From Escherichia phage Dru_SM1: a DNA stretch of 60,633 nt. The translations under genes were made by a program, and so were the position numbers. Location: the sequence record PP596835.1; one strand, given 5' to 3'. The first letter of the stretch is position 1. Every line of letters begins with the position of its first letter. Shown here one piece after another: positions 44,017-55,204 of the stretch. Below the pieces are notes generated by a model, which was not told where the DNA came from, made no database searches, and saw only the letters and a program-made list of their open reading frames with translations.

Positions 44017-44481
44017 TTAAGAGTATGTACCTGTTTGAACAATGTGATTAATAGCATGTGCTCTGAAGATTTCCCTAAAATCTTCAAGTTCTATTGTAGC
44101 ACGAATTGGCTCCTTTTTAATATAATAATTGAACTCATTAATATCAAAGACGGAAGGGTTCATACATATAACAACTTTCCAACCCGCTCTAGGAATCTTA
44201 TACATTAAGACTGGGATCTTATTACATTCCTGTGCAGACTTAACAGTTTGCTTCCACCATGTGTTAACAGCAAGAGTTGCATGGTTTTTGATCTCTACAC
44301 AATATTGGCAAGTATTATCAATATCCGCACCACCTACAGCCGATTGATTTTGTCGCCTTTGTGCAATAGGTTTAGGTGGTAACGGTTTACCAATAAGCTT
44401 ATGCACTTCCGCATAAATATCGTTGAAAAAATCGCAAGCTTCCCTTTCAGCTCTCTGACCTTTTTGCCGTATGTTGACCAT
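44017..44481 (-). CDS. putative PD-(D/E)XK nuclease (possible resolvase)
   Basis: ORF 44017-44586; likely start ATG 44481; core GGADIDNTCQYCVEIK matches the D...(D/E)xK pattern. Confidence 0.4.
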   Translation of the reverse strand: MVNIRQKGQRAEREACDFFNDIYAEVHKLIGKPLPPKPIAQRRQNQSAVGGADIDNTCQYCVEIKNHATLAVNTWWKQTVKSAQECNKIPVLMYKIPRAGWKVVICMNPSVFDINEFNYYIKKEPIRATIELEDFREIFRAHAINHIVQTGTYS

Positions 44482-44959
44482 GATTTGCAAATTCCTTATG
44501 TAATTCCAATCTTTTAGTTCTAACCCAAGCTTTAGCAGCTTGCAAACCTTCAGGTGTAAGTTCAAAATATTTTGATACCAAAACACCTTTTACATGTAAG
44601 TTCGCATAATAGACTTGAATGCCATTATGTTTTGTAATAGTTACGCACTTAACACCAGTCTTTGAATCTTTACGAATAACCATATTATAATTGTTCTGTG
44701 AACGATCAGCTAGTCTAAGATTTTCTATTCTGTTATCATCTCGAACTCCGTTAATATGATCAATTATCTTGTCTTCAGGAATATCACCATTGAAGTATTG
44801 CCATATTAACCTGTGAGCGAAATAAAATCTCTTATCAATTTTACCTTGAATGTAACCGTCCTGACGTTTTGTACCAAATGGTCTTTTATTATAACCGTTT
44901 TTATTTCTTTGAAATAATTTGCCATCTATATAAATAAAGCGATCGTTTACATTGATCAT
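44447..44959 (-). CDS. HNH homing endonuclease
   Basis: HNH motif DHINGVRDDNRIENLRL; start likely ATG 44959 (MINVNDRF); 3' end overlaps the downstream nuclease gene. Confidence 0.7.
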   Translation of the reverse strand: MINVNDRFIYIDGKLFQRNKNGYNKRPFGTKRQDGYIQGKIDKRFYFAHRLIWQYFNGDIPEDKIIDHINGVRDDNRIENLRLADRSQNNYNMVIRKDSKTGVKCVTITKHNGIQVYYANLHVKGVLVSKYFELTPEGLQAAKAWVRTKRLELHKEFANHGQHTAKRSES

Positions 44960-45145
44960 GTTTACCTCCTTTATATGTATTTTAATATGAAGTAAAATCA
45001 ATCTCAATAAAAAAGCGCAACGTTTTCACGCTGCGCTTAGTTTAAATAAGGTACTTGACTATTCAGCTTCCCTTATTTCCGGTAAATTATACAGCCTCGC
45101 CAAAGGCTGGTGACGGTTTGGTACATCTGGCGCCGTCGCGTTAAA

Positions 45146-46741: not shown

Positions 46742-49124
<2,383 letters not shown>

Positions 49125-49125
49125 C

Positions 49126-49650
49126 TTATACACCCAATTTGTTACAACCATGGTTCTTGTGAAAATTGTAATCGGTTAATGCTTTACTTACAGCCATTTG
49201 TGCATCTTCAAAAGTATCGTATACTCCAAGATATTTTGAAGTCCCGTCAACGCCTATACGAGCTTGCCATTTATTAGTAGCTTTGTGAAATGTAACTCCA
49301 TTTACTCCAGAGGTATTATTGCGTTTCTTACTTTGATTTCGTCCATTTTCTTTGTGAGTAACAAGACGCAAGTTTTCAATGCGGTCGTCGTAACGAACAT
49401 GATTAATATGGTCAATCTCATACCCTTCGGGAATGGGTCCATTATGCATTTCCCATACTATACGTGAACGACGATATAGTTTACCGTTAAGGGTAATACG
49501 AACATATCCTTTATCTGTAAGCGTACCCGCAACGCAACCTTCTTTCGCTCTTGCGCCCATATCTTTCTTCCAATACAACACTCCTTCATTATATTGGAAT
49601 ATCACCGCCCATTGTGGGAAAGCTTTAATTTCAGCGGGAAACAGTTCCAT
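49126..49650 (-). CDS. HNH homing endonuclease
   Basis: 174-aa ORF; HNH motif IDHINHVRYDDRIENLRL; first 16 residues resemble the primase N-terminus. Confidence 0.7.
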   Translation of the reverse strand: MELFPAEIKAFPQWAVIFQYNEGVLYWKKDMGARAKEGCVAGTLTDKGYVRITLNGKLYRRSRIVWEMHNGPIPEGYEIDHINHVRYDDRIENLRLVTHKENGRNQSKKRNNTSGVNGVTFHKATNKWQARIGVDGTSKYLGVYDTFEDAQMAVSKALTDYNFHKNHGCNKLGV

Positions 49651-49656
49651 ATTTAA

Positions 49657-49860
49657 TTAAGACCTCCGACGCTTATCGCCTTGCATCTTTTCCAGGACGG
49701 GTTCTGCCAATGAACGTTTATAGATGTACACGCTACCGATTTTAATAGCGCCGGGAATGCATTCGCGCATTCTGGAGAGCTTAAATTTTGAAATACCGAA
49801 CTGGTTTTCAATTTCGGTAGTTGTTATATAGTTGTGATTAAATTCTTCGACGTGGGTCAT
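49657..49860 (-). CDS. small DNA-binding protein (helix-turn-helix, excisionase/AlpA-like)
   Basis: 67-aa basic ORF near the start of the leftward block; HTH-like segment. Confidence 0.45.
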   Translation of the reverse strand: MTHVEEFNHNYITTTEIENQFGISKFKLSRMRECIPGAIKIGSVYIYKRSLAEPVLEKMQGDKRRRS

Positions 49861-49921
49861 AGCTCCTCCTTTGTCCGCACACTATACACAGATAAGAGGA
49901 GCCATTGCAATGCGTTTTGCA

Positions 49922-50665
49922 TTATTGGATTTCAGTTCTTTGGTACTGCATCACGATCTGAAATACCTGATCCGGTGTTCGCCCTTCGCGCAACTGTATC
50001 ATCCATTCATCCAACTGTTCTAAACGTGCTTGAGCTTCGTTAATGTCCTTAAACGGCTGCCATGATACGGGGACACAGCCATTAACACTTAGAGTAATTG
50101 ATGTAGTCCCGTTTTCATACACTCTAAGCGCGCAAGTCGGCCAAACGCCACGCTTATCCCATACAGGCGGGTTTTCTACCGATTTATAAGTGCTATACCA
50201 TTTATTGCGAAGCGATGTTCTTTCCTTATCCGTCAACGGAGCGCCTTTAACCCTTTCATGCTCCTCCAGCCAAGCTTTAAATTTTGGGTCCGGTTTGCGC
50301 CCAACTTTTCCACCTTTCCCTTTCGCATGTTCTTTAAAAGCTTGTTCATATGGATCATTGCCATGCGATTTGTGCCAGTTAAACATACCATCATAACGTG
50401 TTATCTCTTTAGCATCCAACTCGCGTCCCAACTTATTGCTTACCCATGCGCGGAAAGCGGCTCGCTCTGGACCCCATTTACCCGTTTTCTGTCTTGTAGC
50501 TTTTTTAACAGGCTGCTCCACATCTTCGTTGAAGTAATTTTCTACCATTGCAAGCGCCTGGCTTTTAGATGGTGCACCGCGCAACCGTGAGCACTCCTGG
50601 ACGATCCATGCAGCGAAGCACAACTCCTTAACCACAGTTTTAGATGCAATCATTTCTTCACTCAT
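49922..50665 (-). CDS. hypothetical protein (first gene of leftward block)
   Basis: 247-aa Lys-rich ORF next to the control region. Confidence 0.45.
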   Translation of the reverse strand: MSEEMIASKTVVKELCFAAWIVQECSRLRGAPSKSQALAMVENYFNEDVEQPVKKATRQKTGKWGPERAAFRAWVSNKLGRELDAKEITRYDGMFNWHKSHGNDPYEQAFKEHAKGKGGKVGRKPDPKFKAWLEEHERVKGAPLTDKERTSLRNKWYSTYKSVENPPVWDKRGVWPTCALRVYENGTTSITLSVNGCVPVSWQPFKDINEAQARLEQLDEWMIQLREGRTPDQVFQIVMQYQRTEIQ

Positions 50666-50760
50666 AATAACACTCCTCGTTATAAGAATAGATTTAAGCC
50701 GTCCACAAAACTTTTACAGTATCGCAAAACCTTTAAAAGTTACGTTATAAGGGAATTATA

Positions 50761-51000
50761 TTAAAAGATAGTGCTAGTGGCAATTATAGTGGCATTACTG
50801 CGTATAGTGCGCCGTTGCTGGCTTTCAATGTCCTGCCACTATAACTGCACAAACGGCTATCACTACTATTTTGTATAAAGTATAAATTTTTGGGTTTTGC
50901 GTTACGTATAAATACCCCCTTTAAACTAAGAATTATAGTAGTAGTGGATAAACATAGTGAAATGCCACTATCACTACTTACTATAATTAATTTAATAAAA
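50761..51000. promoter_or_regulatory. iteron/operator-like repeat cluster (core TATAGTG / CACTAT, at least 8 copies in both orientations)
   Basis: 10-bp inverted repeat TATAGTGGCA (50785-50794) / TGCCACTATA (50833-50842); three direct ATAGTG copies at 17-19-bp spacing; TATCACTACT twice. Confidence 0.5.
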
Positions 51001-51290: not shown

Positions 51291-51456
51291 ATTGAACTAT
51301 TGTGATCGGAAGGTATATCAAGCTATAATCTGCGTTAAGGCAGAGAGGAGTTATTGCAGAGGTCCGGTAACACGGGCAGCCTCCACAGCAATAACAAGTC
51401 TACAGGAGGCTGTCTTACGTAGCGCGCGCAAAATTAAACTATTGTTTGGAGGGAAT

Positions 51457-51786
51457 ATGAGTCTTGAATGGGATTATAAAAAACACTGGTGGAAGAAAGA
51501 GCCAAAATGGAATAAATATTTTGAGTATAAGGATGGAGATTTATTCTGGAAGAAGGACTTTAAGAAATACGGCATATCCAAAGGTGATGAAGTTAAAGAT
51601 GTTTGTGCTCCGCATCTTCATTGTAAAATTTGCTTGGCACCTATTTGCCAAGGTGAAAACCGTAAAGTCTTAAGGGCTCGTGTCGTTTATGAAATGTTCC
51701 ACGGTCCACAGGGTAAAGGAGCTGTCTTCGGGAAGTATATCAACGACCCGAAGAATGACATGATTGAAAATCTTTATCTAAAATAG
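51457..51786 (+). CDS. degenerate HNH endonuclease-like protein
   Basis: ORF 51292-51786; likely start ATG 51457 (GGAGGG RBS); N-terminus matches the intact HNH genes (FEYKDGDLFWKK) but the HNH region is altered (INDPKNDMIENLYLK instead of IDHI(D/N)H...RIENLRL) and the C-terminal domain is missing. Confidence 0.4.
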   Translation: MSLEWDYKKHWWKKEPKWNKYFEYKDGDLFWKKDFKKYGISKGDEVKDVCAPHLHCKICLAPICQGENRKVLRARVVYEMFHGPQGKGAVFGKYINDPKNDMIENLYLK

Positions 51787-54730: not shown

Positions 54731-55204
54731 ATGAACTGGAATGATATATTTGAATACAGAGATGGTGTTTTGTATTGGAAGCTGAGTAGGCGATGTATAA
54801 ACGCAGGCGACAGAGCAGGATGTGTTCAAGAGGATGGATACACGAGAATAGTATTTGAAGGTAAGCAATACCTGCGACACCGCATAGTGTGGTTAATGCA
54901 CGGAAGAACTATTCCGAAAGGTATGGAAATTGATCACATTGACCATGACCGCCAAAATGACCGAATTGAAAATTTACGTTTAGTTAGTGCTGTAGTAAAC
55001 TGTCAAAATAAAGGAAAATATATCAGTAACACAAGCGGCGTCACTGGTGTAAGTTGGGACAGAAAGAATTTAAAATGGTTTGTAACTATAAGAGTGAATA
55101 AAAAGAATGTATTTTTAGGTCGTTTTGACAAATTCGATGAAGCAGTTAAGGTACGAAAGGAAGCGGAATTGCTGTATAATTTCCACGAAAATCACGGTAA
55201 ATGA
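54731..55204 (+). CDS. HNH homing endonuclease
   Basis: HNH motif IDHIDHDRQNDRIENLRL; likely start ATG 54731 (GAAGG RBS). Confidence 0.7.
   Translation: MNWNDIFEYRDGVLYWKLSRRCINAGDRAGCVQEDGYTRIVFEGKQYLRHRIVWLMHGRTIPKGMEIDHIDHDRQNDRIENLRLVSAVVNCQNKGKYISNTSGVTGVSWDRKNLKWFVTIRVNKKNVFLGRFDKFDEAVKVRKEAELLYNFHENHGK

Follow-up and report, generated by a model that had tools for sequence, protein, structure and literature searches.

MobA is an HNH endonuclease whose gene lies inside the open reading frame (ORF) of the T4-like topoisomerase II large subunit (genes 39/60), where it deletes 55–75 nucleotides (nt) of the host gene and supplies an insert-encoded homologous segment, "homR", with the nick site (bioRxiv 10.1101/2022.08.31.505936; PMC2988022). 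We compared this and other described systems with a locus in a 60,633-nt stretch of DNA (hereafter, the window) from Escherichia phage Dru_SM1 (PP596835.1), a Seuratvirus (Queuovirinae) siphophage of E. coli whose primase region is matched by 35 GenBank phage records. In the window, the gene of an HNH endonuclease (HNH1) directly precedes the primase gene and opens with codons that belong to the primase. Judging from sequence comparison, we consider it likely (probability about 0.8) that a cassette carrying this nuclease homed into an uninterrupted primase start, here called A-type, and that the primase was rescued by a diverged 5′ copy borne by the cassette, here called B-type, rather than by an intron or intein.

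The Seuratvirus cassette resembles MobA in that an HNH gene sits in an essential, replication-related ORF with neither an intron nor an intein, that related genomes lack the insert, and that insertion has occurred repeatedly at one site. The deletion of a host segment (here, primase nt 49–75) and its replacement by a diverged homologous segment within the insert are likewise found in both. The fate of the host protein differs: MobA splits it into two polypeptides that reassemble, adds terminal extensions, and has a 50-nt translational bypass for self-protection, whereas in the Seuratvirus cassette the primase is re-encoded whole, the upstream segment including the start is duplicated, there is no bypass, and the leftover is a leader of 14–16 codons.

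In fungal mitochondria, homing-endonuclease insertions into the 3′ ends of genes (Allomyces atp6, Ophiostoma rps3, and Phlebia atp6/cox2) bring duplicated or foreign C-terminal segments (PMC4019555). They are similar to the present case in that an endonuclease ORF lies in a gene end and a diverged copy of the terminal codons completes the host ORF, and in-frame fusion occurs there as well. However, they affect the 3′ end and C-terminus of organellar genes, involve GIY-YIG or LAGLIDADG enzymes, and need no takeover of the host's translation-initiation region by the nuclease, whereas the Seuratvirus case affects the 5′ end and start of a phage gene and involves an HNH-AP2 enzyme. Free-standing phage endonucleases that spread by "intronless homing" include the T4 seg and mob genes and mobE, which splits nrdA in Aeh1 (PMC2988022). 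The cassette resembles these in apparently having no promoter of its own and riding an operon, in being variable among relatives, in its place beside an essential gene, and in the co-conversion of its flank. The classical members are intergenic, with cut sites at a distance of tens to thousands of base pairs, whereas the Seuratvirus cassette is inside an ORF and fused to host codons, and its insertion point presumably coincides with or adjoins the cut site, as with an intron-encoded enzyme. I-HmuI of Bacillus phage SPO1 (PDB 1U3E), a nicking homing endonuclease, shares the HNH_3-type catalytic domain family with the window protein but is intron-encoded and has another DNA-binding module instead of an AP2-like C-terminal domain. 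The literature searched contained no description of the present arrangement in Seuratviruses or other phages, and the GenBank records of SA80RD and ECP2304, two relatives with the nuclease, label the genes simply "HNH endonuclease" and "primase". We assign the cassette to the in-ORF type of free-standing homing endonuclease, with rescue by a duplicated, diverged 5′ coding segment.

Leader, nuclease and primase restart in the window

The features described in this section lie on the minus strand. The HNH ORF (49126–49650; 174 amino acids (aa), starting MELFPAEIKAFPQWAV) ends with the stop codon TAA at 49126–49128, which is followed by a single G (49125) and then by the primase ATG (49124–49122). 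The original prediction had given these coordinates, with the HNH stop 1 nt before the primase ATG, and an identity of 10 of 16 residues between the two N-termini; both were confirmed here. At the nucleotide level, 32 of 48 positions were identical, and the longest stretch without a mismatch was 10 nt. As a null distribution, we took all 11,628 pairs of ATG-initiated window ORFs with a length of 60 aa or more and compared the first 15 non-Met residues. Since the best chance match reached only 6/15 residues as opposed to 9/15 for the HNH/primase pair, the likeness of the two N-termini exceeds chance. The divergence had also been described as mainly synonymous. This does not apply to the window, where the ten differing codons comprise four synonymous and six non-synonymous changes; it holds instead for the second cassette described below, in which nine synonymous and two non-synonymous codon differences were found over the 14 duplicated codons.

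The locus can be divided into a resident and a cassette-borne portion. The leader (49603..49650; MELFPAEIKAFPQWAV) corresponds to codons 1–16 of the resident A-type primase, with which the HNH ORF now begins, start codon included. The cassette, approximately 553 nt long (49050..49602), consists of the HNH-AP2 endonuclease body, codons 17–174, with its TAA stop (49126..49602), the single G, and the B-type primase 5′ tract (49050..49124; codons 1–25, MKLFPDEIKQYNQWAIAGEDKRPLI). The rest of the primase-polymerase/helicase gene (46788..49049) is resident. Compared with HNH-less alleles, the cassette represents a net insertion of 526 nt, and it replaces resident primase nt 49–75. Because the cassette copy supplies a new ATG 1 nt past the HNH stop, a full-length primase is still encoded: from the restart ATG, the 778-aa primase ORF (46788–49124; starting MKLFPDEIKQYNQWAI) is re-encoded with no coding gap.

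The cassette would also have taken over the translation signal of the primase. The original primase Shine-Dalgarno (SD) sequence, GGAGG at 49663..49667, is located 12 nt 5′ of the ATG at 49650, and the stretch preceding the primase ATG in the HNH-less phages SA126VB and Greed is the same as that 5′ of the window HNH ATG; this GGAGG would now serve translation of the HNH fusion. The primase restart is preceded by an SD-like GGGTG within the HNH 3′ end (49131..49135, 6 nt 5′ of the ATG), which is kept in SA80RD and ECP2304. The tight spacing of stop and restart (TAA-G-ATG) suggests translational coupling, in which case the restart would depend on the weak SD sequence (49131–49135) and on the nearness of the stop to the start.

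A scan for promoters and terminators revealed no signal peculiar to the cassette; a single strong promoter-like site was found, a sigma-70–like match (TTGCCA-17-TATAAT, 11/12) at 50755–50783, 5′ of a 247-aa gene. The same site is annotated as a promoter in the SA80RD and SA126VB records, and it is probably the promoter of an operon to which both the leader-HNH fusion and the primase belong. Since the scan detected no minus-strand terminator-like site between 50755–50783 and the primase, the cassette appears to ride this existing operon.

Primase 5′ alleles and the distribution of the cassette

Next, the primase starts of relatives with and without the nuclease were compared. We collected 21 HNH-less alleles, 13 of them from GenBank and IMG/VR and aligned at the nucleotide level, and eight from metagenomes and compared at the peptide level. 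All 21 displayed the A-type N-terminal peptide, MELFPAEIKAFPQWAVAD(A/T)DKKPLVWDND (e.g., in Skure and SA126VB), or a variant differing by one or two residues. The window leader matched the primase 5′ end of these phages at 47/48 nt (Skure) and 45/48 nt (SA126VB), and this near-identity shows that the first 47–48 nt of the HNH ORF are the start of the resident primase itself. The earlier proposal of an HNH protein joined to the former primase leader, and of a primase that restarts from a copy, is thus borne out by the alignment with HNH-less alleles.

Over nt 1–51, the 13 nucleotide-aligned A-type alleles were 90–100% identical. This segment is unusually conserved, at synonymous sites too, with 98–100% identity in most HNH-less loci (L001, L003, and L040–L047); in STP-SP5 (L047), identity was 90% over nt 1–51 and 82% over the next 255 nt. 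This conservation suggests an extra constraint on the DNA or mRNA, which could be one reason for the stability of the site as a nuclease target. STP-SP5, which lacks the nuclease, has GCT ATA (Ala-Ile) at primase nt 43–48 as in the B-type tract, and KS_W4 (L046) likewise has Ile16. These may be a natural polymorphism or the footprint of co-conversion by a past cassette ("hit-and-run").

In contrast to the leader, the restarted primase differed strongly from A-type at its very beginning: the identity was 48/75 nt (64%) over nt 1–75 versus 98% over nt 76–330 (Fisher p=5e-15). Differences amounted to 27 of 75 positions overall and 7 of 15 around the junction. From nt 76 to nt 330, the window primase was 95–98% identical to HNH-less relatives of the same primase lineage. 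The B-type restart was present in all eight genomes with HNH1 and in no HNH-less genome examined, and among six aligned HNH1 genomes it varied at only two positions (nt 24 and nt 48), unlike the HNH1 bodies, which differed by 2–6% between copies. Since the tract is nearly invariant together with HNH1 in any background and also replaces nt 49–75, the copy is cargo of the cassette and not a duplication made at insertion. The original prediction of an insertion with duplication of the target codons is therefore retained as to the insertion, but the copy is a diverged allele borne by the cassette rather than duplicated resident codons.

HNH1 was found in the window, SA80RD, ECP2304, three ENA/Logan loci (L037–L039), and the metagenome contig PPYE01311188 (L048), and with cluster members the total is eight genomes. 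It is a minority feature, present in two of 35 GenBank Seuratvirus records, one of nine metagenome loci, and none of three IMG/VR loci. In every carrier the insertion point was the same, primase nt 47/48. The genes upstream of the locus occur in three contexts, each seen with and without the nuclease: one in the window and SA80RD with HNH1 and in SA126VB and Greed without, another in ECP2304 with HNH1 and in OddieOddie and KS_W4 without, and a further one in L037–L039 with HNH1 and in Skure and VogelGryff without. In a primase tree, HNH carriers were interspersed with HNH-less genomes. In L048, the cassette resides in a CAjan-type primase that is 96–99% identical to those of CAjan and SHIN8 throughout and whose second half is only 52–82% identical to the window primase. 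Its nt 1–75, by comparison, are 98.6% identical to the window (98.6–100% to the window and ECP2304) and approximately 65% identical to CAjan. The cassette thus occurs in two primase lineages and three upstream-gene contexts. In addition, the guanine-plus-cytosine (GC) content of the HNH body is 38%, versus 46.8% for the primase. The range of backgrounds including L048, the constant tract, and the differing GC content together indicate that the HNH body is of foreign origin and that the cassette is horizontally mobile with its cargo, rather than the result of a local duplication.

The primase gene is itself a mosaic. The primases of the CAjan, Seurat, SHIN8, and slur01 clade matched the window at 95–98% identity in their first ~750 nt but at only 59–79% over nt ~970–1850 (region compared with L041, L042, and L045: window ~47200–48200, primase nt ~900–1900), which places a recombination boundary inside the gene, separate from the cassette.

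Over nt 4–48, the B-type tract was closer to the primase of the Nonagvirus JenK1 (36/45) than to A-type (29/45), and the remainder has the Seuratvirus length; these features point to an unsampled Queuovirinae lineage as the B-type source. A search of IMG/VR with the B-type peptide DEIKQYNQWA as a degenerate DNA pattern gave no match, and a 40-aa B-type query against a set of 5.8 billion proteins gave no candidate words. A 250-aa primase query returned one truncated Seuratvirus primase and distant primase-polymerases; full-length clusters were not returned by it.

The primase carries the Pfam NrS1-1_pol-like HBD and DUF3987 domains. Its N-terminal 300 aa align with solved structures of the NrS-1 primase-polymerase from residue 8 on, and the motif P-x-E-[IL]-K...QW-x-[IV]-A-x-x-D-K-x-P near the N-terminus recurs in distant primase homologues. 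Given the alignment from residue 8 and the recurring motif, the primase N-terminus probably must be restored after insertion. An alternative start at 49151, which would leave no duplicated segment, was rejected, as this ATG is ACG in SA80RD and ECP2304.

The nuclease family and a second nuclease at the primase site

The HNH ORF matched HNH_3 (PF13392) with E=5.5e-21 and 74.4 bits (cut-off, 24.8), and D80, H81, N93, and N102 of HNH1 were invariant in a 37-sequence family alignment. The Pfam AP2 match was weak and below the curated cut-off (20.2 versus 33.3 bits). The C-terminal part of an AlphaFold2 model superimposed on AP2 domains with a root-mean-square deviation of 1.2–1.7 Å over 43–51 columns and a probability of ~1.0, with a Foldseek E of only 0.14–0.36; several homologues have a precomputed PF00847 match. 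The top PDB match of the model was I-HmuI (Foldseek E=1e-3, probability 1.00, 95 columns, and 26% identity over the aligned part). The mean predicted local distance difference test (pLDDT) score of the model was 84.6, with 50 for residues 1–10 and 90 for residues 11–20, and a helix begins at W14; according to the model, the leader up to W14 probably forms, for the most part, a poorly ordered tail.

All HNH1 copies are intact, with 174 codons, and synonymous differences exceed non-synonymous ones (23:5 and 16:5), which indicates that the leader-HNH fusion ORF is maintained. No other conserved start for the HNH protein was found: codon 16 is GTG in the window and GTA in SA80RD and ECP2304, and the next Met is M31, a start at which would drop conserved N-terminal strands. 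In the alignment of 37 homologues, the usual family start is M-x(1-3)-W-x-x-[IY]-F-x-Y-x-D-G, and an N-terminal extension of ~12 residues was seen only in HNH1 and one other protein. The leader residue W14 falls on the family's conserved W near the N-terminus, from which we infer that the nuclease lost its own first few codons and was joined at or just after the TGG codon. The possibility that the leader peptide is an ordinary feature of such HNH proteins, unrelated to the primase, was ruled out by the same alignment, in which no family member other than HNH1 and the protein at the same site, P0002, had it.

P0002 (172 aa) is encoded at locus L033 (4001–4600) on a 60.4-kb contig of Logan ERR13243239 and starts MELFPAEIKAFPQW|DDHFYYKDG. 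Its leader is nucleotide-identical to that of HNH1, with the junction after codon 14. The region 3′ of P0002 reads TAA-GGAGGAACT-ATG, followed by a primase starting MELFPAEIKAWNQWAIADADKKPLVWDND, a restart allele that we call C-type. The restart ATG in L033 is preceded by a perfect GGAGG, as opposed to GGGTG and TAA-G-ATG in the window, and the two cassettes may restore primase translation with different efficiency. As a protein, C-type is close to A-type, with 13 synonymous and three non-synonymous changes over 25 codons; at the nucleotide level, the identity to A-type was 65% over nt 1–51 and 92.5% over nt 76–330, and the longest exact repeat run in L033 was 8 nt.

The bodies of HNH1 and P0002 are 52.9% identical, but each has many free-standing relatives that are at least as close, and the two do not pair in a neighbor-joining tree, which is star-like; their common ancestry at the site is possible. 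The B-type and C-type tracts, otherwise widely different, share the 14-nt sequence AATCAGTGGGCTAT at nt 34–47, where A-type has CCACAATGGGCGGT. These differences from A-type, located at the junction, probably indicate where the core of the nuclease target lies, and the shared AATCAGTGGGCTAT points either to convergent selection acting on that core or to swaps of nuclease bodies within a long-lived cassette.

The genome contains at least three intact nucleases of the HNH1 family. The other two are encoded at 54731–55204 (plus strand; 47% identity to the primase-site nuclease; N-terminus MNWNDIFEY...) and 44447–44962 (minus strand; ~32% identity; N-terminus MINVNDRFIY...), and both have an ordinary N-terminus with no borrowed leader. 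In addition, the ORF at 51292–51786 (plus strand) shows, at 51502–51780 (KYFEYKDGDLFWKKD...), ~33% identity to the N-terminal half of proteins of the HNH family. It has no Pfam match and no HNH catalytic motif, and the segment 51502–51780 looks like a decayed homing-endonuclease remnant.

Proposed homing and competing explanations

The comparison places the left junction at or just after primase codons 14–16 (TGG GCG GT), with a 13-residue primase-derived tail before W14, and the right junction at primase nt 75/76, the cassette copy replacing nt 49–75 and duplicating nt 1–48 in diverged form. In the homing model, the founding donor would be a phage with the nuclease directly 5′ of a diverged, B-type primase, and the first insertion probably came about through one-sided illegitimate joining at TGG microhomology. 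During co-infection, the nuclease would nick or cut the uninterrupted A-type sequence near nt 35–50 of HNH-less primase genes, and recombinational repair would copy the cassette, using as arms the leader (with any upstream homology) and the primase from nt 76 onward. HNH carriers would be immune, as their leader lacks the right half-site and their restart copy has diverged from A-type; the low repeat identity, with no exact run beyond 10 nt, would also disfavor deletion of the nuclease by recombination between the repeats.

A diverged direct repeat flanking the nuclease would also result if the first ~16–25 primase codons had been duplicated in tandem in situ at insertion and had later diverged by point mutation, and the mostly synonymous changes in the second cassette (13 versus three codons over 25) are as expected for recoding under protein constraint. 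We nevertheless regard this history as improbable, given that the leader agrees with the resident allele at 45–47/48 nt (94–98%) but the identity of the restart copy is 64% up to a sharp boundary at nt 75/76, and that resident nt 49–75 are replaced instead of duplicated. The B-type tract is also not fast-evolving, with its two variable positions against 2–6% in the HNH bodies, and its residue changes are like natural variants of Nonagvirus and distant primase-polymerases (e.g., KQY.QWA and AG.DK.P). A transposon-type target-site duplication was rejected as well: the repeats agree at only 32/48 nt (67%) and share no exact run longer than 10 nt, and the downstream copy is constant across recipients. 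Conversely, the nuclease could be ancestral, with HNH-less primases arising from repeated precise loss through recombination between leader and restart. Homing-endonuclease genes are commonly lost, and the GCT ATA at nt 43–48 of STP-SP5, as in B-type, could be an excision footprint. However, this scenario, which we consider very improbable, predicts chimeric A/B alleles with B-type nt 49–75, and none was seen among the 13 nucleotide-aligned HNH-less alleles; the other eight, including that of the most divergent Seuratvirus examined, are A-type at the peptide level. The longest exact repeat match of only 10 nt, the foreign GC content of the nuclease, and the occurrence of HNH1 in a minority of genomes (2/35 GenBank records and 1/9 metagenome loci) also argue against it.

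Nucleases inside essential phage genes usually reside in introns or inteins, and the reading frame of the present ORF continues that of the upstream "exon", but restoration of the primase by splicing of a group I intron or an intein can be practically dismissed. No Rfam match was obtained in 48500–50200 even at E<=1, no splicing-domain family was present among the Pfam matches (HNH_3 and the weak AP2 only), and a stop codon (TAA) and a +1 frame change lie between HNH and primase; moreover, the downstream ORF starts from an ATG of its own and encodes the N-terminus in full, such that splicing would duplicate 16 residues. We excluded the intron and the intein on these grounds. Somewhat greater weight, though still a low one, is given to the view that the nuclease no longer homes and is a decaying passenger, or one co-opted for instance to interfere with co-infecting phages, with the leader fusion as a neutral accident. 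Phage HNH genes are in many cases inactive or serve other functions, and the degenerate remnant at 51502–51780 shows that decay occurs in this genome. On the other hand, the eight HNH1 copies are intact, with synonymous changes exceeding non-synonymous ones and the invariant family residues kept, and the constant cargo tract in several backgrounds suggests that the cassette moved recently or is still moving; in any case, the same nuclease could both home and interfere with competitors. This view would leave the structural conclusion unchanged.

Several points weigh against homing into an A-type site with rescue by a cassette-borne copy. Cleavage, nicking, and homing by the leader-HNH enzyme are predictions, and the target site and the immunity of B-type are deduced from the substitution pattern alone. 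Target polymorphisms by themselves did not stop nicking by MobA (bioRxiv 10.1101/2022.08.31.505936), so divergence is no guarantee of immunity. The searches found no donor lineage with a free-standing HNH1 beside a natural B-type primase, an IMG/VR scan for close relatives of the nuclease gave none above 53% identity, and no close HNH relative was met in the searches outside the primase site. Furthermore, the three upstream contexts could stem in part from independent recombination of the upstream module rather than from repeated homing.

If the homing model is correct, the element carries a recoded upstream segment with its own ribosome-binding site and ATG and takes the original start of the host gene, the recoding serving both immunity to self-cleavage and a guard against deletion by repeat recombination. 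A selfish nuclease could then enter an essential coding sequence without RNA or protein splicing and without splitting the protein. Only tentatively do we suggest that such "duplicate-exon rescue" is a general third strategy, in addition to introns and inteins, by which homing endonucleases persist within essential ORFs. The model would explain two oddities of annotation, a nuclease that shares its N-terminus with the downstream gene and a 75-nt island of divergence that opens an otherwise 98%-identical gene. The system is testable, as HNH-less and HNH-carrying Seuratviruses growing on E. coli K-12 have been isolated (VogelGryff of the BASEL collection, SA80RD, and ECP2304). The divergence island marks the probable recognition site, and this could aid phage engineering and the understanding of marker exclusion between competing phages.

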